This document shows, piece by piece, positions 4,104 to 60,750 of a stretch of DNA of 64,000 nucleotides. The stretch comes from Nanobdellota archaeon (lineage in GTDB: Archaea > Nanobdellota > Nanobdellia > Woesearchaeales > WJKV01): NCBI GenBank assembly GCA_023133595.1, contig JAGLWF010000003.1, positions 44,369 through 108,368 on the forward strand, given 5' to 3'. The position numbers were made by a program, and so were the translations under genes. The notes under the pieces were generated by a model. That model ran no database searches, was not told where the DNA came from, and worked only from the letters and a program-made list of their open reading frames with translations. Position 1 is the stretch's first letter, and the number at the start of each line of letters is the position of its first letter.

Positions 4104-4465
4104 TGGTTATGAAACTAACGTCTCAGGAAATCGAAGTATGGCATGTGTTGCCAGCTGTAAGGGCAGAGCTTGCCAAAGAGATGAAAGAGCTGGGCATGCT
4201 GCAGAAGGATATTGCCTCTGTGCTGGGCCTGACACAAGCTGCGATTTCACAATATTTCTCGAACAAGAGGGGATGTAGTATTACATTCAATGATTGTATA
4301 CAGAAGCAAATAAAGACTAGTGCTGGGAAGCTAAAGGACAATTCAGAGGTATTGTTCAAGGAATTGTATGATATATTGCAAATGGTACGTGATACAGGCC
4401 TATTATGTAAGATTCATCAAGAATTTACAGATATATCAAAGTGCGAATGCTGCAAAAAACACTGA
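4103..4465 (+). CDS. XRE-like HTH transcriptional regulator with a C-terminal Cys/His cluster; first gene of the isc / tRNA-thiolation operon
   Basis: HTH segment LQKDIASVLGLTQAAISQYFSNKRG; C-terminal CKIHQEF...CECCKKH could bind a metal. Confidence 0.5.
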   Translation: MVMKLTSQEIEVWHVLPAVRAELAKEMKELGMLQKDIASVLGLTQAAISQYFSNKRGCSITFNDCIQKQIKTSAGKLKDNSEVLFKELYDILQMVRDTGLLCKIHQEFTDISKCECCKKH

Positions 4466-4467
4466 AA

Positions 4468-5613
4468 ATGGCAAAAAAAGTATATTTGGATCATGGGGCG
4501 ACAACACCAGTAGATGCAGAAGTAGTTGAAGCTATGCAACCTTACTTTACAGAGAAGTTCGGCAATGCGTCTTCTATACATTGTTTTGGAAAAGTGGCCC
4601 GTGATGCTCTGGAAAAATCACGAGAAATTATTGCTTGGAAGATAAATGCTGAAAAAGATGAGATAATTTTTACTTCAGGCGGTTCAGAATCAAACAATCT
4701 TGCAATCAAGGGTGTTTTGTTCGCGAATAAAGAGAAGAATCATATTATCACTTCAAAAATCGAGCATCCTGCTGTTTTACAGACATGCCAGGCACTTGAG
4801 AATGGATTTTCTGTAACTTACTTGGATGTTGATGCAGGCGGCTTAGTTGATTTGAAAAAGTTGGAGGAAGCGATTACTGACAAAACAGCTTTGGTTTCTA
4901 TTATGCACGCAAATAATGAGATTGGAGTTATCCAGGATATCAGAACGATTGGCGAGATCTGCAAGAGACATAATGTTTTGTTCCATACTGATGCTGTGCA
5001 GAGTTTCACAAAAGTTCCGATTGATGTCAAAGATATTAATGTTGATCTGATTTCCTTATCTTCACATAAAATGCACGGACCAAAAGGAATAGGGGCTTTA
5101 TTTATCAAGAAAGGAACTGAATTACAGAAGCAAAACCAGGGCGGACATCAAGAGCTTGATCTCCGTGCAGGAACTGAGAACATTTCAGGAATTGTTGGTT
5201 TTGCAAAAGCAGTAGAATTAGCCAGTGATGATCATGTTGCGCAAATGCAGGAACTGCGAGATAAATTTATCGACAAGATATTGAAAGAAATATCAGATAC
5301 AACCCTTAATGGCGGTCGTGAGGAACGATTGTGCAATAATGTGAACATTACATTCAAATTTATCGAAGGAGAAGGCTTATTATTACATCTAGATGCGCAT
5401 GGCATTGCTGTCAGCACTGGAAGCGCCTGCACCTCACAATCGTTAGAACCTTCACATGTATTGCTTGCGATTGGATTAAAACATGAGGATGCGCACGGTG
5501 CTATCCGTTTTACACTTGGAAAAGAAAATACACAAGAAGAATTAGATTATACTTTTGAAAAATTAAAAGAGGCTGTGAAGAACTTAAGAAAAATAAGCCC
5601 ATTGGCAAAATAA
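4468..5613 (+). CDS. iscS: Cysteine desulfurase (IscS/NifS family, PLP-dependent)
   Basis: LDHGATTP N-terminus, PLP-lysine motif SSHKMHGPKG and active-site Cys region STGSACTS. Start chosen at MAKKVYLDH rather than the upstream GTG. Confidence 0.88.
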   Translation: MAKKVYLDHGATTPVDAEVVEAMQPYFTEKFGNASSIHCFGKVARDALEKSREIIAWKINAEKDEIIFTSGGSESNNLAIKGVLFANKEKNHIITSKIEHPAVLQTCQALENGFSVTYLDVDAGGLVDLKKLEEAITDKTALVSIMHANNEIGVIQDIRTIGEICKRHNVLFHTDAVQSFTKVPIDVKDINVDLISLSSHKMHGPKGIGALFIKKGTELQKQNQGGHQELDLRAGTENISGIVGFAKAVELASDDHVAQMQELRDKFIDKILKEISDTTLNGGREERLCNNVNITFKFIEGEGLLLHLDAHGIAVSTGSACTSQSLEPSHVLLAIGLKHEDAHGAIRFTLGKENTQEELDYTFEKLKEAVKNLRKISPLAK

Positions 5614-5614
5614 A

Positions 5615-6031
5615 ATGTCGTACGTAGACCAATACTCGGAAAAAGTAAAAGAACATTTCATGCATCCAAAGAATATGGGGCATATCAAGGAAGAAGATCT
5701 TCAGCCAGGAGAAGAACTGGCTCGTGGAGAAGTTGGGAATCCAGCATGCGGAGATTTGATGACTATATTTTTGAAGATCAAAGACAGAAAGATAATTGAT
5801 GCAAAGATCAAGACATTTGGCTGTGCAGCCGCAATAGCATGTTCTTCAATAACAACTGAGATGGTTGTTGGATTGACAATTGACAAAGCACGGAAATTGA
5901 CAAAGAATCAAGTCGCGGACGAGCTTGAAGGATTGCCCCCATTAAAACTGCATTGTTCAAATCTAGCTGTTGATGCTTTGAACAAAGCATTAGACAATTA
6001 TGAACAAGGCATTGGAGTAGTAAGAAAATGA
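5615..6031 (+). CDS. iscU: Fe-S cluster assembly scaffold IscU/NifU
   Basis: The three conserved cysteines sit in GNPACGD, FGCAAAIAC and LHCSNLA contexts. Confidence 0.88.
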   Translation: MSYVDQYSEKVKEHFMHPKNMGHIKEEDLQPGEELARGEVGNPACGDLMTIFLKIKDRKIIDAKIKTFGCAAAIACSSITTEMVVGLTIDKARKLTKNQVADELEGLPPLKLHCSNLAVDALNKALDNYEQGIGVVRK

Positions 6032-6906
6032 ATGTTTTTATTCTAAGATTCGGAGAGATTGCACTTAAAGGGGCAAATCGAAGTAGATTCGAGAAATCAT
6101 TAATCAGAAATATACAAAGAAGAGTTGAAGGCAGTGTTATCAAGCGAGTGCAGGGCAGATTTTATTTGTATAATGATAAGCTTGATGAGGACAGGATAAT
6201 TGTATTATTGCATAGTGTGTTTGGATTAGTATCTTTTTCTCCTGCAATTGAATGCGAACTTGATATCGAAAAGATAAAAGAAACCATACTTTCTGTGATT
6301 GAAAAAGAAAAAGCAAAGAGAAAGATTGAAACATTCAGGATCACAACAAACAGGATTGAAAAACATCTTCTTTCGTCCAATGAGATGAGCCGTGACATGG
6401 GCGCGTTTGTCATTGGAAAAACAGGATGGAAAGCAAAGATGAAAGGTATGGATCTGAATATTGGCATTGAGATTGCGAACAAAGCTTTCATTTATACTGA
6501 GAAGATAGGAAGCCTTGCTGGAATTCCAGTTGGTATTGAAGGAAATATCTTCTTACTGATGGATGATCCAGACGCCTTAGTCAGCGGGTTTATCATGATG
6601 AAACGCGGTTGCGACATATTTCCATTGATCTTTGATGAGAAAGATAGAGAGATGGCTGAAGGCGTTATTGAGAAGTTGCAGGTATTTTCGCCGGGCAAAC
6701 TATCTTTGCATGTATACAAACCAGAAGAGATCAAAGAAGTTGCTGAAAAATACAAGTTAAGAGCGATCGCTGTCTCAGATAAGGTTGATAAGATGAGACC
6801 TGATCTTGAAATCACAACACTACGACCGATAGTCGCGTTTCCAGACAAAACACTAAAATTTTATAGAGATAAGATAGAAAAAATTATCTTAGGCATTGAA
6901 AAATGA
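6028..6906 (+). CDS. ThiI-like protein: N-terminal ferredoxin-like plus THUMP domain, then a truncated PP-loop-like segment whose SGGxDS motif is degenerate
   Basis: N-terminus ILRFGEIALKGANRSRFE matches the ThiI start. VSGFIMMKRGCDIFPLIF aligns to ThiI ...SGGIDSPVAAYLMMKRGxEV..., but the PP-loop residues read DDPDAL. Overlaps iscU and the downstream carrier gene by 4 nt. Confidence 0.6.
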   Translation: MNVFILRFGEIALKGANRSRFEKSLIRNIQRRVEGSVIKRVQGRFYLYNDKLDEDRIIVLLHSVFGLVSFSPAIECELDIEKIKETILSVIEKEKAKRKIETFRITTNRIEKHLLSSNEMSRDMGAFVIGKTGWKAKMKGMDLNIGIEIANKAFIYTEKIGSLAGIPVGIEGNIFLLMDDPDALVSGFIMMKRGCDIFPLIFDEKDREMAEGVIEKLQVFSPGKLSLHVYKPEEIKEVAEKYKLRAIAVSDKVDKMRPDLEITTLRPIVAFPDKTLKFYRDKIEKIILGIEK

Positions 6907-7100
6907 AAATTATTATCAAAAAAGCAGGGAAAAAGGAGATTACAAAGAAATTTTCCGGAACCGGAAAAAAACTATTGGAAGAACTAAAGATAAATCCAGA
7001 AGAGGTATTGATTCTGAAGAATAACGAGCTGGTGGATGTCGATGCGCGTTTGACTGATAACGATAATATTGAGATCTTATCTGTTGTTTCAGGTGGATAA
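6903..7100 (+). CDS. Ubiquitin-like sulfur-carrier protein (ThiS/MoaD/TtuB family) with a C-terminal Gly-Gly
   Basis: 65 aa, ending ...SVVSGG-stop. Overlaps the start of the downstream TtuA gene by 1 nt. Confidence 0.55.
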   Translation: MKIIIKKAGKKEITKKFSGTGKKLLEELKINPEEVLILKNNELVDVDARLTDNDNIEILSVVSGG

Positions 7101-8005
7101 TGAAATGCAAAAAATGCAAACAAAAAGCTGTTGTCTCTGGTCTATGTAAAGATCATTTTGTGAAATCTTTTGAGAGAAGATTCTATGATTGCATTGCCAA
7201 ATACAAATTGATCAAGAAAAAAGATAAGATTCTTGTTGCAGCAAGCGGGGGAAAAGATTCCATTGTCCTTCTTTATCTGCTATCTAAAAAATATAAGGTC
7301 AAGGCTCTTGCAATTGATGAAGGAATTCACGGTTATCGAGAACAGACGTTGAAAGTTTTGAAAGAATTTTGTGAAAAGAATGAAATAGAACTAACAATAA
7401 AAACATTGAAAAAAGAGTTTGGATATTCACTTGACCAGATCATCAAGAAAACCAAACTGCGGGCGTGCACTGTCTGCGGAATATTACGAAGGTATCTGTT
7501 GAACAAAGACAGATCGTGCGACGTGATTGCAACAGGACATAATCTTGATGATGAGGCACAGTCAATCCTGATGAATGTTCTCAAGAACCAGATTGAATTA
7601 CTGGCAAGATTAGGGCCAAAGACAGGAGTGATCCCTAAAAAAATCGCAAAGAAACATTTCATACAAAGGATAAAGCCAATGTATTTCATTCCAGAACGAG
7701 AAATAATGGCGTATGCTGTGATAAAAAAGTTTGGAGTCTCTTTTACAGAATGTCCATATGCCTATGATTCATTTAGGAGCTCTGTACTGGAAGGATTAAA
7801 TTTGATTGAAAATAAAAATCCTGGAACAAAGATGAATATTGTCAAGAATTTCTTATCAGAACTGCCGAATCTTAAACAAAAATATAAGCAGGGCAGAGTT
7901 GGCCAATGTTCACGGTGCAGAGAACCTGCAAACAAGCAATTATGCAGTGCGTGCCAGATGGCTGATCGAATGAAGAAGTTATTGAAAGCTCGAAAACCTT
8001 TATAA
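7100..8005 (+). CDS. ttuA: TtuA/NcsA/TtcA-family tRNA 2-thiolation PP-loop ATPase with Zn/Fe-S cysteine clusters
   Basis: PP-loop VAASGGKDS, N-terminal CxxC...C, central CTVCG, HNLDDEAQS motif and C-terminal CSRCREPANKQLCSAC. Confidence 0.75.
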   Translation: MKCKKCKQKAVVSGLCKDHFVKSFERRFYDCIAKYKLIKKKDKILVAASGGKDSIVLLYLLSKKYKVKALAIDEGIHGYREQTLKVLKEFCEKNEIELTIKTLKKEFGYSLDQIIKKTKLRACTVCGILRRYLLNKDRSCDVIATGHNLDDEAQSILMNVLKNQIELLARLGPKTGVIPKKIAKKHFIQRIKPMYFIPEREIMAYAVIKKFGVSFTECPYAYDSFRSSVLEGLNLIENKNPGTKMNIVKNFLSELPNLKQKYKQGRVGQCSRCREPANKQLCSACQMADRMKKLLKARKPL

Positions 8006-8029: not shown

Positions 8030-8650
8030 ATGATAGATATAGTATTTCCAGACAGCAACGAGAAAGAATTTGTTGGGATGGCAAAGAGATTAGGCTATTC
8101 TGGAATCTGTTTTGTCTATCATGAGAAAGATCGAAAAAATCTAGTGAAAGCAGAAGCTTTGAAAGAAACAGGTTTCAATATCTTTACTGGGCTTGTCTGC
8201 AAAAAATTGCCAAAAGCAAAAGCAGATATATATTTTGCTGAAAAGAACGATCGTTTCTTTTTGAAAGGAAAACATGATGTGATATTTGATATTGAAGGAC
8301 TGTATGATTTTATCCATCAAAGAGATTCTGGCCTAAATCACATATTGTGCAGGATGATGCACGAGAAAGAAGTTAGCTATGGCATCTCATTTTCTGCTAT
8401 ATTGAATTCAGAGAAACGATCTGTATTGCTTGGCCAGATAATGCAGAATGTAAGACTGTGCCAGAAGTATAAAACAAAGATAATTTTTGCATCTTTTGCA
8501 GAACATCCCTTTAAGATGCGATCTCCAAATGATCTGGAAGCTTTTGGCAGGATTCTAGGACTGCGCAATGCAAAAAAAGTACTGAATGCAGCGGCATCTG
8601 TAGTGAAGACTAAGCAAAGACAGATAGGCAAAGACATAGAGCGCATATAG
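8030..8650 (+). CDS. Possible RNase P protein subunit Rpp30 (Rnp3), TIM-barrel/PHP-like
   Basis: Weak match from memory to archaeal Rpp30: N-terminal MIDIVFPDS...MAKRLGYSGICF and C-terminal ...MRSPNDLEAFGRILGLRNAK. Unverified. Confidence 0.3.
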   Translation: MIDIVFPDSNEKEFVGMAKRLGYSGICFVYHEKDRKNLVKAEALKETGFNIFTGLVCKKLPKAKADIYFAEKNDRFFLKGKHDVIFDIEGLYDFIHQRDSGLNHILCRMMHEKEVSYGISFSAILNSEKRSVLLGQIMQNVRLCQKYKTKIIFASFAEHPFKMRSPNDLEAFGRILGLRNAKKVLNAAASVVKTKQRQIGKDIERI

Positions 8651-8699
8651 AATTTTCTAATAAAGTTTATATAGGTAATCTTATTTAAGAAGTCTGGAG

Positions 8700-11600
8700 A
8701 TGGTGGTAGGTTTGAATAAAGGGATTTATGCAAGAATTCTTCTTGTTTTATGCAGTTTACTAGTACTTTCTGTAGTTGCTTCTGCATTCGATTATATTGC
8801 GATTGATTATGCAGATCCGCGCCTGAATCTAACAAATCTATATTGGAAAGTAATGAGCCCTATAGATCAACCTACAGAAGGAGGGTATCTTTATAGCAAA
8901 AATGATGTGGGAGTAACGAGTAATATTGGTAAATTTCATATAAGAAAATCAGGAACATATAATGTCTGGACATATGTTGTGGCAGACGCATTAGGTCAGT
9001 GTAGAAGCGGAGGACATACCAGAAGAATAAACCTAAGGCAGACACATGCATTAAAACTTGACAGTCAGGTATGGGTCGATGTTGTGCCACAGACAGAGCC
9101 TTATAAATATACTCGGACGTGGGTAAAAGCTTATGATCAGGTACAGCTAAATGCAGGAGAACATACAATACAACTAAAAGATACAGGGGGTGCACAGGAT
9201 CCCTGCGGAGTTGCTTTGATTTATTCAACATACGCAATCACAATGGTGATTACTGATAATCTAGCGCAAACAGCGAGTGGGTTGAGTTATTATTATAATA
9301 AAACTTCTGACGTGATCAAAGGAAAATGCGACGCATTCTATTGGTGCGAAGATGACCAGACATGTTTTTTTGGAGGATATTTTCTGCCAGCACCGGGTGC
9401 GACAGGAATTGCAGCAACAAAGTTTTGTTGTGGAGATCAATCGAATGAAGTCTTTACTAAATTTACCACTGTTGGCCAAACATTCTACAGATGTCTTGTG
9501 AATGAACCAGATAGTGCGCAAAGTGTATGCGGAGCTGTGACTGGACAGTATGAATGGTGGAACCCAGACCAAAATATTGGAACATTAGATGATAATTGTT
9601 GCGGTGATGATGATTATGATAATGGTGCGATATCTAAAGAAAGCGCAGCAGGCGGTGTCTACTTGATGTGCGACCGTACAGATATTGGAACTCCTGTTGT
9701 AAGGCAGGCAACTAATGTTTATGCTGGAAGTGTCTATAAGATTGAACGACCATCTCAAAGAACCTATGACGTTCTTACAACAGCCACTGGAAAATTTATT
9801 CCATGTTCATATATAAAACATAGTGGAAATTATGCATTTTGGAATCCTGCAGGAACATTTGTAGATTACCAGAATCGTATTCGTGTCGGATCGAGTGAAT
9901 TCTTGTGCGATGTGAGGGGGGATCGAGGTTATTATAGAATATACGAATGTAGAAACGCAATGCCTTCAGGCGGAAGATATACTGCATTAACAGCTCAAGA
10001 AGAAAAGTCTAACGACGATAATCGTGGATTTGTGATGGGAAAGGCTATAGTGAATCCATTCCCAGAAGATTGGTCTGGGTTTAGCAGGCAGAGTGAGACT
10101 CCGTGCTCAGCAGATTTTTGTACCACTTTTGCAAACCCAATACAAGACGAATTATCAACAAATACATTCAAATTAGTGTCTTGGTATAATGGGGATTTCG
10201 CCTTTGATATTTATTTTGAGAATCCTGAAAAAGCAAAGGATCTTGACTTTTATCTTGCTGGACGAAACACTACAGGGGTTATGCCTTCAATTCGAGGCCA
10301 GTTATCGCAATATTTCACCAGTTCACGAAAAGAAGGAACCGGAAGATGGTATCATGTCATAATCCCTAAAGAAAGAGTTAATGTCGCGATACCGTCTGGT
10401 TTTGCTATTGGATTTGCTCTGATACCAAAAACAAACATTGGAAAGGTAAAATTGTCAAATCCTCATCTGAAATCGACCTACCCCCAAACGTTTTACTGCG
10501 GCGAGGATCTGGATTCTGGTACAGGAAAATGGATCACTGACCCAGATGATAATGGAAAAGCTTGTGACGCATTATTGACTGCTGACTGGACTGGAACGAG
10601 ATGTTGCGGCGATGACAGAACAACCGAGAATATCGCACGAGGGAATATGAAAGGAGAATTTTTCTTTGATACAGATGGAATGTGTTTCAATTCGTTGAAA
10701 GTTCCAGAGACTGGAACAGTCCAGCGCATCGCGGTTCCAGATGCGCAAGGCAATAAAAAGTTTAAGCTATTGGCAGATTCTGACACTGGAAAGATTTATT
10801 CGTGCGGTGCAGATGAAAGTGGTTTTGGATGGTTAACAGAAATCAGATCTACAGACGGAAGTAATCAAGATATGGTTGAAGAAGCGCAGACATGTGATGC
10901 ATTCGGCACAAGATCAAGAAGTTATTTCTGCAATGGAACCGAATGGGATGATGCGACATACACTATAACAGACCCGGACAATTTTCCAGGAACAATAAAG
11001 CCTTTGGATCGTACTGTCCAGTCAAAAGATCCAACAGGAACGAAATTGGGATGCTGCAGGCAGGACGAATGTTTTGATGGAACAACATGCGTTGATTCTG
11101 AACACGATGACCAGCCAGAAGAACCAGAAGGGGGTGGAACAATGTGCATGCGCGGTCACTGGATAAACGCCTCAATCATATATGACTGGCTGACTGACGA
11201 GTTCGGTTTTTGCGCAGAAAGCAGCGAATGCTTGTTAGATCCAGATGCAGATACATTGATCACATCAGATGAAACATTATCAATCTGTAAACCTTCTGGA
11301 TGGTATGCTGAATCGTCACAGATCGAAGGCCTGGGTAAAAGTCTAGGGTATAACGAAGATAAGATTAATGCGATATATTGTGATGATGGAAAATGGATGT
11401 CGAGGACAAAGTTTATAGCACAGAAAATGTTAGCGATTCCAAGCACAGAGGACTATACTTTAGTTTGCGGATTTCCATCTGAAGTTCTTGTTGATGAAGG
11501 TTTAGGATTCAGGGGGTATAGTCCAATTGCAAGTTCTGCAATGAGATTCACAAACGAATTTGACGAGGATGTCTTTAATCATCTCTGTATCTTGCAGTAT

Positions 11601-56388: not shown

Positions 56389-56423
56389 GCCTCTGGAGGG
56401 ATTTGCACCCTCTAATCTAAGAG
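56389..56423 (-). other. tRNA 3'-half-like fragment (T-arm + 3' acceptor strand); imperfect copy of the 3' end of the tRNA at 57508-57610; no matching 5' half found nearby
   Basis: Minus strand reads ...GAGGGTGCAAATCCCTCCAGAGGC versus the intact tRNA's ...GAGGGTGCGATTCCCTCCCAGGGC, same orientation. It overlaps the 3' end of the LAGLIDADG ORF. Confidence 0.4.
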
Positions 56424-57395
56424 TTTCGGACAAGTTTTTCTGATCCTATTTATGTGCCTTGAATTAGAAAAACCTATTGTTTTTAAAAACTTTTTTGTAT
56501 ACTTTTCCCCATTAATTTGAATAATATATCCATTTTTAGTTATTGTTGGATTTAAATCAAAAAATTGCAATGTATTATAAATTTGTCTAATCAAAGGTCT
56601 ATTTATAAGTTCAATATGGATTCTAGGGTAAGGATTGCGATAAGACGGCCTTTTATCAAAAAAGACGCAACCATCGGTATCATATATTCCTCTCAAAAGA
56701 GCAGTAATATGTTCTCGACAAGAGTTTAATATTTCTTGGGGAATTTTAACGGTATATGATTTCTTGCCTGCAGGAAATTTAAATCTTTGGGTTAATAATA
56801 TATGGAGAGTTTTAGAGTTGAGATTTATTCTTAAGGTATTATCTATCCTTTTGATGCGCGGTTTAATATTAAAATAGGTTTTTGCAATAGGAATCATGCA
56901 TTTTTCATAATATTCATAATCATATCTGGAATCTCCTGTAAATTGTATTACATAAGAAGACCCATATTTGTTAGTAAAACCGTCACCAATGAAAGCGCCA
57001 AGAAATTCACAGAGATTTTCATTTAGCTCTAGATTAACATCAAAATGATATTTACTTATTCTGTTTTTCCACGACAATTTTCTACCTATCATAAAAATCT
57101 CTTTGTGATTTTTATAAGTTGTAATGCCTCCTTTTTTACGACCCCAATTTTCATCGATAAGTTGTATTGTTTTATTGAAATAATTCTGTTTTTCTGTCGA
57201 TAGGATGTTATTTAATTTTTGGTACCTATAATAAGGAAGTGTGTACATTCCATTTTTATAAAATTCAAATCTAGATTTAGGAATGTTTGTGAAGTTTCTT
57301 AGTTCTTTCCAAAATCTAAAACCGCTTGCCTTAAGAGCTTCTTTAAAGAATGAAATTCTATCAGATTTGTTTTGAAAAATTACTCGTTTTTTCAT
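56412..57395 (-). mobile_element. Free-standing LAGLIDADG-family homing endonuclease ORF (two LAGLIDADG motifs)
   Basis: Motif 1 LCEFLGAFIGDGF, motif 2 ITALLRGIYDTDGCVFF; 327 aa. Confidence 0.65.
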
Positions 57396-57507: not shown

Positions 57508-57610
57508 AGCCCTGGGAGGGAATCGCACCCTCGACCTGCAGTTTTCTGTGCAAAGCGCATACGAGATTCAGCTCAATGATCTGCTGCTCTGGCTACTAAG
57601 CTACCAGGGC
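57508..57610 (-). tRNA. tRNA gene (~103 nt incl. discriminator) with a ~30-nt insertion in the anticodon region, consistent with an archaeal BHB intron; isotype not resolved by hand
   Basis: Minus-strand RNA: GCCCUGG-UA-GCUU-AGUAGCCA-GAGC-A-GCAGA...CUGC-AGGUC-GAGGG-UGCGAUU-CCCUC-CCAGGGC-U, with a perfect 7-bp acceptor stem, D-arm and T-arm. No CCA encoded. T-rich tract downstream. Confidence 0.6.
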
Positions 57611-57855: not shown

Positions 57856-58602
57856 ATGATTAGAAATAGCTTTATTTTCCTGAAGAACATACGAGAGCAG
57901 ATGGAGAAGAACCTCTGGGAAGTTGGAATACATACCTGGTCTGATTTTCTGGATGCTAAGGATGTGCCAGGTATTTCGAAACAAAAGAAATATTTCTACG
58001 ATGCTCAACTGGAAAAAGCGCAGAAAAATCTGGAAGTAGAGAATATGGCATATTTTGCAGCACAACTCCCTTCTGTCTATCACTGGCGATTGTATGATCA
58101 TTTCAAGGAGGAAATTGTTTACTTAGATATTGAAACTGGAAGCAGGAATGATAATATCACTGTGATTGGTTTATCTGATGGTGTTGATACAAAAATTATG
58201 CTGAAAGGGCAGAATATGCACAGAGAAATTCTCTTGGATGAGCTAAGCAAACATAAGATTCTTGTAACTTTCAATGGCGGAACATTTGATGTTCCGATTC
58301 TGCAGAAATATTTTGGTTTCAAACTAGAGATGCCGCACATAGATCTCAGGCATGTATGTGCAAAGATTGGTTTGAACGGTGGTCTGAAAGAAATAGAGAA
58401 AAAATTGGGCATTAACAGGCCAGAAGAACTGGAATGTCTTAGAGGGCATAATGCTGTTGAACTGTGGAAGATGTGGTGTGTCACGCACGAAGAACGTTTC
58501 TTGGATCTATTGATAAAATACAATGAAGAAGATATCTTAAACTTAAAACCAATCGCAGATCACGCAATAAACGAATTATGGAAGAGAACTAAAGGTTTTT
58601 AA
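57856..58602 (+). CDS. RNase-H-fold predicted 3'-5' exonuclease (YprB / PolB-exonuclease-like)
   Basis: Exo motif I-like YLDIETGS, later FNGGTFDVP and YNEEDI (DEDD-type acidic residues). Confidence 0.5.
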   Translation: MIRNSFIFLKNIREQMEKNLWEVGIHTWSDFLDAKDVPGISKQKKYFYDAQLEKAQKNLEVENMAYFAAQLPSVYHWRLYDHFKEEIVYLDIETGSRNDNITVIGLSDGVDTKIMLKGQNMHREILLDELSKHKILVTFNGGTFDVPILQKYFGFKLEMPHIDLRHVCAKIGLNGGLKEIEKKLGINRPEELECLRGHNAVELWKMWCVTHEERFLDLLIKYNEEDILNLKPIADHAINELWKRTKGF

Positions 58603-59191
58603 CTTTAATAGTTTTCACAGTATCTTCTATGATCTTGACAACATCGATTTTTGCCTCCTGCTCTTCTATTCTCTCTGGAGTGCATTTTGTAACTGGATGT
58701 TTTGGAACAAAATCACAACAAGAAGACGGTTCCTTTGAAATATCAAAAGTTCCAATATCTTTTGCAATATCTACTATTTCTGTCTTATCCAAGCCAAGCA
58801 GGGGACGAACTACTTTTATCTTAACAGCAGTGTCTATTGTTTTTATATTATCCAAAGTCTGGCTTGCGACCTGTCCAAGATTTTCTCCAGTTATCAAGAA
58901 TTCACATCCTTCTTTTTCAGCGATCTTCTCTGCAATACAATGCATCAGACGCTTGCAATAGATACACACATACCTCTTATCTGCTTTTTCCATGAACTCT
59001 GTAAGCGAAGGAGCATGAGGGACGATATATATTTTCTTTATCCTGACTTTCTTTGCCAATCTCTCAGCAAGCTCTAATTGTTTCTCATTAGTATAGAAGT
59101 GCAGCCCAATTACTTCTACTTTTTTCTCCTGTATCAAATGTCCAGCCACAATCGAGTCATGGCCGCCTGATAACAATAATAGACCTTTCAT
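58589..59191 (-). CDS. Stand-alone ThiI-type PP-loop ATPase domain (tRNA 4-thiouridine synthase catalytic half) without THUMP/ferredoxin-like N-terminal domains
   Basis: PP-loop LLLSGGHDS, ITGENLGQVASQTLDN, VVRPLLGLDKTEI and the ThiI persulfide-Cys context SSCCDFVPKHPVTKCTP; only 200 aa. Confidence 0.75.
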   Translation of the reverse strand: MKGLLLLSGGHDSIVAGHLIQEKKVEVIGLHFYTNEKQLELAERLAKKVRIKKIYIVPHAPSLTEFMEKADKRYVCIYCKRLMHCIAEKIAEKEGCEFLITGENLGQVASQTLDNIKTIDTAVKIKVVRPLLGLDKTEIVDIAKDIGTFDISKEPSSCCDFVPKHPVTKCTPERIEEQEAKIDVVKIIEDTVKTIKVKNL

Positions 59192-59838
59192 TTTTTCTTG
59201 AAATACATATAATTTATTCTAGCAATCATGAAGCTGACAAATGAATTGAAATAACCTTTTTTCTTGAACTTTCGCTCAGAAGGTCTTATCCAAGCTCTTG
59301 TTATGAACTTGAACATCCCTTTCCCTTTCAATCTTTGTGCAAGATCTGTATCTTCATATCTTTTCAGATCTGGATGGTAACCGCCAGATCTTCTGAACAT
59401 GTCTTTTGTCATGAAACAATTGCCGTGGAAGATGCGATCCTTTCTGCTGGCCTTGTTTGCTAGCTTCACAATCAAACCATACCAGAAGTTCTTTGTCTCT
59501 GGTATCTGTTTGGCACAGCCGTATGCATAACCTTCTTCGACAGCTTTCAAGACTTCTGCCAGGTAATTTTCTGACACAACAGTATCAGCATCATTGAAAA
59601 CTAAGATATTGCTCTTAGTTTTTTTCGCACCTGTGTTTCTCGCACGAGAAACATTAGCGACTTTCAGTGAATATACATCTGCACCAGCCCATTTAGCAAC
59701 TTTTTCAGTGCTGTCAGTACAACCGTTCAGGATAATGATTATTTCTTTGTTTGATGGGGGACATCTCTTTATCGCTTTTATAGTCTTCCCAATAATAGCT
59801 TCTTCATTATGTACTGGGATTATAACAGATAATTTCAT
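59188..59838 (-). CDS. Family 2 glycosyltransferase
   Basis: LSVIIPVHNEE, DxD region FNDADT; 4-nt overlap with the downstream gene. Confidence 0.72.
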   Translation of the reverse strand: MKLSVIIPVHNEEAIIGKTIKAIKRCPPSNKEIIIILNGCTDSTEKVAKWAGADVYSLKVANVSRARNTGAKKTKSNILVFNDADTVVSENYLAEVLKAVEEGYAYGCAKQIPETKNFWYGLIVKLANKASRKDRIFHGNCFMTKDMFRRSGGYHPDLKRYEDTDLAQRLKGKGMFKFITRAWIRPSERKFKKKGYFNSFVSFMIARINYMYFKKK

Positions 59839-60099
59839 CTTAGCAAGCAGGACAATCTGGATCTTTATTAACTTTTATCTTTTTGAAATCATTATCCCAA
59901 AGATCTATGTATATCAAATCTTTACAATATTCCTTATCCAGCAAGATTTTGAGTGCTTCTGTTGTCTGGATCGAAGCAATCGTATATGTCATACTATTAA
60001 TAATGCCAATCTGATTGCATGTTTCTGTTTCTCGTATCTCAGGCTCCTACTTGTAGAGAAGTTATTTAAAAAGCTTTTTCAAAAGAATAGAAAAAAATA

Positions 60100-60750
60100 T
60101 CATTTCAAGGTTTTTTCGATAAATTCAAACTGGTCTTCAAATATATGGGCGGAACAGCTGAATGTGGTGATCTCTCCAATCTGAAGGTTTAATTTCTGTG
60201 CGACGTATTTCTGGATTACGTACAAATGATAAATATTAGCTGGCCAACCAAAGAACATATCATTGCTTCTGATAATGGCGGTGGTGTTCAATTTTTTCTT
60301 ATCTATAATCTTGAATAAGATATTGGTTATGCCTGGACTGGCTTTCTTTGCAAATGTGCTGTCTAGCAGATTGTCCCAGAAGTTTACTATTGCTTTTCTG
60401 CTCCACCATTCTTTCTTCAGAAGAGGAATCACAAAATCGTCCAGCTGATTTAATTTACCATTAAAATTAAACAAGCGAGGGCCATAACTGTAAGAGAATT
60501 TACTGTTGATATGATCTGGGGATAATATACTATTGGCAATCTTATCCAGAGGAGGATATCTCCATTTCTCGAAACTGTTCAGTATTTCAATTGGTTTTGT
60601 AATATCTTTCTCAGGGTTCTTGATTGATACTATAAAGTTCAGGATTTCCCTACACTTTCTATTATCTTCATCAACATAATTGTTACCTTTTTCATAAATC
60701 TCTTTCAGCAATTTTTTCCAGGTATCCAAAGTTGATTCGCTTTCGATCAT
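60100..60750 (-). CDS. Thymidylate-synthase (ThyA)-fold protein lacking the canonical nucleophile Cys (PCH becomes PGI)
   Basis: Alignable from memory to ThyA across SRKAIVNFWD (~SRRIIVSAWN), IIRSNDMFFGWPANIYHLYV (~[20 protein letters not shown]) and SAHIF (~DTHLY), but the PCH site reads ASPGITN. Confidence 0.6.
   Translation of the reverse strand: MIESESTLDTWKKLLKEIYEKGNNYVDEDNRKCREILNFIVSIKNPEKDITKPIEILNSFEKWRYPPLDKIANSILSPDHINSKFSYSYGPRLFNFNGKLNQLDDFVIPLLKKEWWSRKAIVNFWDNLLDSTFAKKASPGITNILFKIIDKKKLNTTAIIRSNDMFFGWPANIYHLYVIQKYVAQKLNLQIGEITTFSCSAHIFEDQFEFIEKTLK

Follow-up and report, generated by a model that had tools for sequence, protein, structure and literature searches.

ThiI, the synthetase of 4-thiouridine at position 8 of tRNA (s4U8), has so far been treated as a single-chain enzyme composed of NFLD, THUMP, and PPase domains, the last of which carries the ATP-binding PP-loop. 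Proteins of the [4Fe-4S]-dependent TtuI subclass, which is recognized by a CXXC motif together with a third cysteine, with the CXXC cysteines serving as cluster ligands, have all been described as three-domain (PMC9825150). ThiI of Thermotoga maritima forms dimers via its PPase domains; the NFLD and THUMP domains of one monomer clamp the RNA at its acceptor stem and at its 3'-CCA, and U8 enters the PPase active site of the other monomer (PMC4041423). The domains of ThiI are distributed between two genes in a 64,000-nucleotide stretch of the genome of a Nanobdellota archaeon from the order Woesearchaeales (assembly GCA_023133595.1, contig JAGLWF010000003.1, positions 44,369 to 108,368 of the forward strand), which is referred to here as the window. 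One gene encodes a 200-residue PPase domain, and the other, located 51.7 kb away, a 292-residue NFLD-THUMP protein with a degenerate PPase domain. It is proposed, with a probability of about 0.5, that the two proteins are subunits of a heteromeric tRNA 4-thiouridine synthetase.

The 200-residue protein shares the PP-loop, the CXXC motif with the third cysteine, the DI-loop, and the RPL and DK motifs with the archaeal TtuI enzymes of Methanococcus maripaludis (MMP1354) and Pyrococcus furiosus (PF1288). However, these enzymes contain NFLD and THUMP in the same chain, and the window PPase has neither. The window THUMP protein has the same composition as PH1313 of Pyrococcus horikoshii: in both, NFLD and THUMP domains precede a reduced PPase domain whose PP-loop is degenerate. 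A review from 2023 calls PH1313 a 'ThiI-like protein' with conserved residues missing, a smaller PPase domain, and an unconfirmed activity (PMC9957541). Unlike the window gene, that of PH1313 is not located beside iscS, and the Pyrococcus form derives by recent decay from an ortholog whose Thermococcus version is active. In Firmicutes, a desulfurase gene (iscS or nifZ) lies directly upstream of the NFLD-THUMP gene, as in the window, but the downstream ThiI is complete and active. Bacterial fusions of ThiI with NFACT-R (DUF814) contain a THUMP-less PPase domain with CxxC and an internal cysteine and are predicted to make s4U (Burroughs & Aravind 2014, PMC4075521). Their RNA-binding module is provided in cis and is not a THUMP domain, whereas the window protein has no extra domain.

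Ncs2, a paralog of Ncs6, is degenerate in its catalytic residues. In the eukaryotic tRNA 2-thiolase Ncs6/Ncs2 (Ctu1/Ctu2), the active thiolase, a PP-loop Fe-S protein, is paired with another subunit, Ncs2, the role of which is described as unclear (PMC5372739). It differs from the arrangement proposed for the window in that it belongs to the TtuA/Ncs6 PP-loop family, modifies U34, and contains no THUMP domain. In the formation of tRNA ac4C12 by Tan1/THUMPD1 and Kre33/NAT10, Tan1 is a non-catalytic THUMP protein that delivers tRNA to Kre33, and the likeness to the window lies in a THUMP protein serving a separate enzyme. However, the partner of Tan1 is an unrelated acetyltransferase, whereas the THUMP protein of the window carries a dead copy of its putative partner's domain. 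No description of a stand-alone ThiI PPase domain paired with a PH1313-type protein has been found in the papers retrieved by literature searches, nor, beyond the reviews cited, anything on split ThiI, the function of PH1313, or ThiI in DPANN archaea.

The two ThiI-like proteins

The first-pass annotation of the window, made from the DNA sequence alone, described the 200-residue open reading frame (ORF) as carrying all the catalytic hallmarks of ThiI without a THUMP domain, and profile comparisons bear this out. The protein matches the ThiI family PF02568 over profile positions 5–196 of 197 (E-value 3e-53; 180.8 bits, cutoff 20.5) and contains the hallmarks of that family, SGGHDS, TGENLGQVASQTL, RPLLGLDK, and Cys159. 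Cys76 and Cys79, which form the CXXC motif (CIYC), are equivalent to Cys265 and Cys268 of M. maripaludis TtuI, and Cys159 is equivalent to Cys344 of Escherichia coli ThiI and Cys348 of the M. maripaludis enzyme; the protein thus has the complete CXXC+C set of TtuI. There is no Pfam match to NFLD or THUMP in the ORF and no extra domain, NFACT-R/DUF814 included, and the C-terminus lies about 15 residues past the PF02568 match. The alignment to TIGR00342 is restricted to model positions 174–369 and scores 169.8 bits, under the cutoff of 264.5. The AlphaFold2 model of the protein (pLDDT 94.3) superimposes in Foldseek onto the PPase domain of T. maritima ThiI (4KR6_A) with a query-normalized TM-score (TMq) of 0.93, a root-mean-square deviation of 1.7 Å, and a sequence identity of 37%. 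Sequence and predicted fold indicate a complete ThiI/TtuI PPase domain that is apparently active.

The nearest named family is NCBIfam NF006222 (PRK08349), a 198-position model of a 'hypothetical protein', which matches the full length of the protein with 189.3 bits, below the cutoff of 251; ten related stand-alone proteins score 162–236 bits. The PP-loop begins at residue 8, as it does in 120 homologs of about 200 residues. The N-terminus is thus genuine, and together with the ATGA overlap at the end of the upstream gene it rules out a frameshifted THUMP remnant upstream. A mis-called or frameshifted full-length ThiI was excluded by the family-typical N-terminus, the intact glycosyltransferase gene upstream, and the 52-kb gap between the two genes. 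Identity as the 7-cyano-7-deazaguanine synthase QueC, which had been named as the finding that would speak against ThiI, was rejected. PF06508 covers only residues 4–55, the PP-loop region, which is generic; the score for TIGR00364, 38 bits, falls short of its cutoff of 150.3; and Bacillus subtilis QueC gives a TMq of 0.57 versus 0.93 for ThiI. Nevertheless, '7-cyano-7-deazaguanine synthase' is the NCBI label of the window protein and of the stand-alone ThiI domain in many DPANN metagenome-assembled genomes (MAGs), including those of the relatives P0005, P0014, P0050, P0057, P0079, and P0115, which looks like a systematic mis-annotation.

The 120 stand-alone homologs originate from MAGs of Woese-, Nano-, and Micrarchaeota; 118 of them are 177–231 residues long and the other two no longer than 251. 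Ser8, Gly10, Asp12, and Ser13 of the PP-loop are kept in 119 of the 120, the CXXC motif in 114, and Cys159 in 118, and the invariant or nearly invariant elements comprise the PP-loop S-[SG]-G-I-D-S, the DI-loop, RPL, DK, and P-x-x-P-x-T. In a search of metagenome contigs, for which the matches listed are mostly bacterial full-length ThiI, at least about 20 further stand-alone genes are among the matches listed, some of them on contigs with a GC content of 0.6–0.74; such genes are not restricted to DPANN. A rough neighbor-joining tree places the stand-alone proteins in one clade that adjoins full-length ThiIs of the CXXC type and is apart from the CXXC-less bacterial ThiIs; the exceptions are L099 and L131, which are positioned among full-length proteins. 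As judged from these comparisons, the family of stand-alone PPase domains is old and is no local accident. At one of the loci (L087, 9120–10001 on the plus strand of a 133-kb contig with a GC content of 0.43), the start of the stand-alone ThiI gene is overlapped by an ORF for a 294-residue PP-loop ATPase of another type with weak matches to Asn_synthase, NAD_synthase, and QueC.

The 292-residue protein contains an NFLD (ThiI_fer, PF22025, E-value 2e-17) and a THUMP domain (PF02926, E-value 6e-10), and PF02568 is matched by residues 174–220 alone at a sub-threshold score. TIGR00342 gives 127.5 bits, also under 264.5; each of the two window proteins represents only part of this model, and neither has NFLD, THUMP, and PPase in one chain. 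The loss of the PP-loop noted in the first-pass annotation is confirmed: the sequence IFLLMDDPDALVS occupies its position, with LLMDDPDA where ThiI has LLSGGxDS. The CXXC motif, the TGExxGQ loop, and the equivalent of Cys344 are all missing as well, and the protein is accordingly predicted to be catalytically dead. Cys195 in the MMKRGC segment was considered as a persulfide site and rejected, as a cysteine is common at this position in ordinary ThiI and PH1313 has a valine there. The closest solved relative is PH1313 (1VBK; phmmer E-value 3e-32, approximately 28% identity), onto which the AlphaFold2 model (pLDDT 95.1) can be superimposed over its full length (TMq 0.86, target-normalized TM-score 0.82, E-value 1e-26). 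Like the 307-residue PH1313, which reads ILHDELSA at the PP-loop position, the window protein consists of NFLD and THUMP domains and a reduced PPase domain without a PP-loop.

The state of the PP-loop in homologs of the 292-residue protein tracks their length. Those of up to 346 residues (43 clusters) all lack S[SG]GxDS, and those of 365–445 residues all have a canonical or near-canonical PP-loop. When 1.84 billion representatives were searched exhaustively with a profile, 148 of the best 150 matches (E-value ≤ 3e-73) were 244–343 residues long, and 139 of the 141 new ones lack the PP-loop; the short dead form comprises at least about 148 clusters at 50% identity. A pattern from a 12-sequence alignment that was used to search genome contigs also fits bacterial ThiI, and approximately 18 of the 80 loci obtained with it are of the dead type. 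All 43 dead homologs share E10, K14, L25, N28, R44, G66, S69, S71, F103, S117, and G125 in their NFLD and THUMP domains, and nearly all share L13 and R18 in the NFLD loop; the family has also kept the linker GGLPxG (G165-x-P167), a helix with MMKRG, and the RPL strand (P267). Mean pairwise identity within the family is 44% for the NFLD, 38% for THUMP, 53% for the linker, and 31% for the dead domain. The conserved residues together with the 31% identity show that the dead domain is degenerate, yet not drifting freely.

These properties make it very improbable that the THUMP gene is a functionless, decaying remnant of ThiI in an organism that has lost s4U8 or makes it with an undetected full-length ThiI. 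The catalytic motifs are gone and the PPase domain is shrunken, and the search for ThiI was confined to the 64-kb window of the genome. However, the protein belongs to a large family, is full-length, has invariant residues in every domain and a confidently predicted fold, and its gene is positioned inside a tightly overlapping operon; relics do not persist in this manner.

Proposed assembly of a two-subunit synthetase

In the proposed heterodimer, the NFLD and THUMP domains of the 292-residue pseudoenzyme would bind the tRNA at its acceptor stem and at its 3'-CCA end and so position it, and the pseudoenzyme's residual PPase core would serve only as a dimerization platform. The 200-residue subunit would pair with the dead core via the usual PPase–PPase interface, bind ATP at its PP-loop, adenylate U8, and replace the activated oxygen with sulfur. 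The sulfur would be transferred through a [4Fe-4S] cluster with Cys76, Cys79, and Cys159 as its ligands, and both the sulfur and the cluster would probably be provided by IscS and IscU, whose genes are co-transcribed with the THUMP gene. In this complex, one active site of the canonical homodimer would be recreated in full. Because the canonical ThiI homodimer already acts in trans, a heterodimer of one dead and one active chain needs no new geometry.

Contacts across the T. maritima dimer can be followed in the two window proteins. The NFLD loop S12–R21 of monomer B, which includes Lys17, reaches the active site of PPase domain A and touches its loop I289–L297, and Gly168 of the linker forms a hydrogen bond with Asp319 of the other monomer (PMC4041423). 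The NFLD loop corresponds to GEIALKGANR of the THUMP protein, in which K14 is invariant (43 of 43 homologs), and the linker glycine to the invariant Gly165. In the 200-residue protein, the I289–L297 loop corresponds to LGQVASQTL, which is invariant or nearly so, and Asp319 to Asp135, present in 117 of 120 homologs. The GEIALKGANR and LGQVASQTL loops are the most conserved stretches of their respective families.

Co-occurrence and gene neighborhoods

The expectation that the two halves co-occur in related genomes has been confirmed, as both genes are present in seven genomes in all. In addition to the window (Nanoarchaeota MAG KAT43, contig of 300 kb), these are an ENA contig of 142 kb (k141_1458505), in which the genes are about 43 kb apart, the Woesearchaeota MAG KY335, and the loci L014, L020, L175, and L109, where the genes are within 3 kb of each other. 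The stand-alone PPase gene of L014 is divergent and directly upstream of an operon of IscS, IscU, and the short THUMP protein, and the arrangement is the same in L020 and L175; in L109, the order is PPase, a ThiF/UbaA-type E1, and a dead full-size THUMP-ThiI. A partner within 10 kb was found in 3 of the 24 dead-THUMP loci scanned, and L175 is a further case. The chance expectation is approximately 2% per locus within 10 kb, a rough estimate that assumes a genome of about 1 Mb, and the four adjacencies are not fully independent, given the relatedness of L020 and L175. Chance alone would be expected to give fewer than these four adjacencies and seven co-occurrences. In L014, the frame that contains IscU (8484–10001, plus strand), upstream of the dead THUMP gene, extends over 506 residues from stop to stop, which may mean that IscU has a large additional part fused to it.

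Several observations weigh against the two-subunit synthetase. The conserved loops bind RNA or ATP in ordinary ThiI too, so that their conservation does not point to a heterodimer in particular. Most loci do not have the two genes as neighbors. None of nine other long stand-alone loci has a THUMP partner within 10 kb, and none is present in the examined flanks of the stand-alone PPase genes on high-GC contigs. A full-length ThiI, which the first-pass annotation had named as a finding that would refute the split, may lie elsewhere in the genome; in the 64-kb window, which the search covered, no further ThiI-like ORF is present. P. furiosus has a dead PH1313-type gene (AAL81611, which is about PF1487 by arithmetic on accession numbers) without a gene partner within 10 kb, as well as a separate ThiI with CXXC+C, PF1288. 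For the latter, binding of a [4Fe-4S] cluster has been described together with an assay of tRNA sulfuration, the result of which the main text of the source states explicitly only for the M. maripaludis enzyme (MmTtuI). As AAL81611 and PF1288 are both present, a stand-alone partner cannot always be deduced from a dead THUMP protein; dead THUMP proteins can coexist with another catalytically equipped ThiI and may pair with it instead.

The distance between the genes, the high-GC loci, and the Pyrococcus case also agree with functional independence of the two proteins, in which the PPase would act as a homodimer on tRNA with no THUMP module or on another RNA or nucleotide substrate, and the dead THUMP protein would have a non-catalytic role, for example as an acceptor-stem binder or chaperone. 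Contexts of the stand-alone genes as varied as GT2, hydrogenase maturation genes, and Nop56-fibrillarin point in this direction, as does the ThiI+NFACT-R fusion, a THUMP-less ThiI with a different RNA-binding domain (PMC4075521). Independence is nevertheless considered rather unlikely. A bare PPase domain of 200 residues has no recognizable module for targeting RNA, and ThiI needs the CCA-measuring THUMP domain to reach U8. The adjacencies and co-occurrences exceed chance, and the dead protein retains the loop that serves the active site of the partner in ThiI. These arguments favor the heteromeric synthetase.

The THUMP gene belongs to a tightly overlapping operon of six genes in the order IscS, IscU, THUMP, ThiS/SAMP2, TtuA/NcsA-like, and RNase P p30 (Table 1). 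The IscS-(IscU)-THUMP-short order recurs in L003, L005, L006, L014, L020, L063, and L175. IscS is encoded directly upstream of ThiI in dozens of Firmicutes loci, and NifZ-ThiI of B. subtilis is another pair of desulfurase and ThiI genes (PMC5372739). Because the desulfurase–ThiI pairing is the classic s4U arrangement, the position of IscS upstream of the THUMP gene supports a role in s4U synthesis. Other neighbors of dead THUMP genes are tRNA-modification genes as well: Sua5, an MtaB-like radical-SAM gene, and ThiS...TtuA.

The window and eight loci (L006, L014, L016, L020, L032, L063, L172, and L175) share a syntenic series made up of the short THUMP gene, an optional SAMP/ThiS gene, TtuA, and p30. 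The synteny could mean that the dead THUMP protein presents tRNA to the TtuA/NcsA-like 2-thiolase encoded two genes downstream, and Tan1-Kre33 offers a precedent for a THUMP adaptor of a separate enzyme. Such a function is improbable, since the non-THUMP domain of the protein is a ThiI-type PPase core, and the linker and NFLD loop are specific to ThiI. Furthermore, TtuA is not adjacent in L003, L169, L171, L174, and Pyrococcus, and the THUMP ruler spans the distance from the CCA end to positions 6–10, not to 34 or 54. TtuA of P. horikoshii is active in vitro without a THUMP partner. The scores of the window thiolase for TtuA (206 bits) and NcsA (184 bits) are alike and far below the cutoffs of 450 and 500, and do not separate U54 from U34 as the target.

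The catalytic gene had also been described as coupled to a GT2 glycosyltransferase gene. The overlap of the two genes exists in the window; however, the pairing is kept only in a close relative with 63% identity, and GT2 is missing beside the stand-alone PPase in L001, L014, L020, L175, and L176. A functional link to GT2 as a general feature was therefore dropped in favor of synteny at the level of the lineage, and GT2 is probably a co-transcribed neighbor that is functionally unrelated to the PPase.

Table 1 Features of the window (positions within the 64,000-nucleotide stretch)
Feature	Position	Strand	Details
IscS-type cysteine desulfurase	4441..5613	+	PF00266, E 2e-88; first gene of the THUMP operon
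IscU Fe-S scaffold	5615..6031	+	PF01592, E 1e-41; stop overlaps start of the THUMP gene
NFLD-THUMP protein, shrunken dead PPase domain (predicted; PH1313 type)	6028..6906	+	292 aa; MCK4669911.1; KAT43_01815
NFLD loop GEIALKGANR	6052..6081	+	equivalent to the T. maritima 'bottom active-site loop' S12-R21
Degenerate PP-loop position	6547..6585	+	IFLLMDDPDALVS in place of xVLLSGGxDSPVA
ThiS/SAMP2-like sulfur carrier	6903..7100	+	PF02597, PF21965; overlaps stop of the THUMP gene
TtuA/NcsA-like PP-loop tRNA 2-thiolase	7100..8005	+	PF01171; NF049949 206 bits, NF047749 184 bits
RNase P subunit p30	8030..8650	+	PF01876; last gene of the syntenic block
LAGLIDADG_3 ORF	56412..57395	-	327 aa; PF14528, E 2.5e-8
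tRNA, probably with intron	57508..57610	-	Rfam, 46 bits
Stand-alone ThiI/TtuI PPase (PP-loop) domain, CXXC+C type	58589..59191	-	200 aa; MCK4669960.1
Cys158-Cys159	58715..58720	-	Cys159 is the third conserved cysteine
TGENLGQVASQTL, ATP-phosphate-binding loop at the dimer interface	58853..58891	-	corresponds to the T. maritima DI-loop G286-Q295, loop I289-L297
CIYC (CXXC motif)	58955..58966	-
PP-loop SGGHDS, ATP binding	59153..59170	-	sequence checked
GT2 glycosyltransferase	59188..59838	-	PF00535; stop overlaps PPase start by 4 nt
ThiF/MoeB/UbaA-type E1, C-terminal third; probable relic	59843..60046	-	PF00899 172-238/238, E 6e-8, 32.6 bits (cutoff 28.1)
Short ThyA-like protein	60100..60750	-	216 aa; PF00303, positions 88-222/266 only

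A 68-codon frame between the thyA-like gene and GT2 retains the catalytic-cysteine region and the CPxC motif of a ThiF-type E1 and is matched in phmmer to ThiF of L109, in which an intact ThiF gene directly follows the stand-alone ThiI gene. The frame is probably a gene relic, because the space available is too short for the ~170 residues that precede this part in an E1. An 84-residue ORF upstream of GT2 in L167 was considered as its counterpart and found to be unrelated. The short ThyA-like gene is kept in the relative L167. The tRNA on the other side of the PPase gene was identified by Rfam, and ARAGORN did not report a tRNA in any part of the window; the gene probably contains an intron because it spans 103 nucleotides for a model of 71 positions. 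The LAGLIDADG_3 ORF is located about 110 nucleotides downstream of this tRNA on the same strand.

Origin of the two families

The first-pass annotation interpreted the two genes as products of a domain fission of ThiI. The modules do reside in separate genes; however, a fission within this genome falls short as an explanation, since both genes are members of large and older families. Their likely origin is that a CXXC-type ThiI was duplicated and the copies then underwent complementary losses: one would have lost the NFLD and THUMP domains, and the other would have lost the catalytic residues and shrunk later. Locus L109, which is archaeal because it contains a gene for CDP-archaeol synthase, combines an active stand-alone PPase with a full-size NFLD-THUMP-PPase protein encoded 3 kb from it. 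All catalytic motifs of this protein are destroyed; it reads LLNGDISS and TGDSFPKPAEE and has no cysteine. Its full-size dead protein is interpreted as an intermediate stage. The PP-loop position reads LLSGKKSA in L030 and L054.

A search with PH1313 identified dead forms of 300–313 residues in Pyrococcus species, T. chitonophagus, and Palaeococcus ferrophilus, and 380-residue orthologs in most Thermococcus species and P. pacificus. The latter are 66–69% identical over the N-terminal 237 residues and carry SGGIDS, C265xxC268, and GDSLGQVASQTLEN. The mixture of active and dead orthologs indicates that the decay took place within Thermococcales. The retention of a dead PPase domain, the L109 intermediate, and the active and dead forms of Thermococcales point to duplication with complementary decay and contradict a clean split of the domains. 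On the same comparisons, the decay of THUMP-ThiI is inferred to have happened more than once. Three active 381-residue ThiIs of Thermococcales (P0249, P0301, and P0351, from Thermococcus and Palaeococcus) have C265xxC268 but no cysteine at the position of E. coli Cys344 (EDEIPFIPKHP); their last residue is Cys381, and the third cluster ligand may come from the C-terminus.

It is suggested, tentatively, that s4U8 is synthesized in DPANN archaea, and probably in others, by a ThiI that necessarily has two subunits, a pseudoenzyme of the PH1313 family and a free Fe-S PPase, and that pseudoenzymes have arisen repeatedly. With a two-subunit enzyme, the sites of this repeated pseudoenzymization would be DPANN, the Pyrococcus lineage, Methanofastidiosa, and the full-size dead form of L109. 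If the proposal is correct, a whole archaeal branch builds ThiI from a pseudoenzyme and a separate catalytic subunit, which would be a prokaryotic parallel to Ctu1/Ctu2. The widespread labeling of the putative catalytic subunit as QueC would then be corrected as a systematic annotation error. The heterodimer would be a natural half-of-sites ThiI suited to dissecting the in-trans mechanism, and a function would be proposed for the large PH1313 family and for a structure that has been an orphan since 2005.

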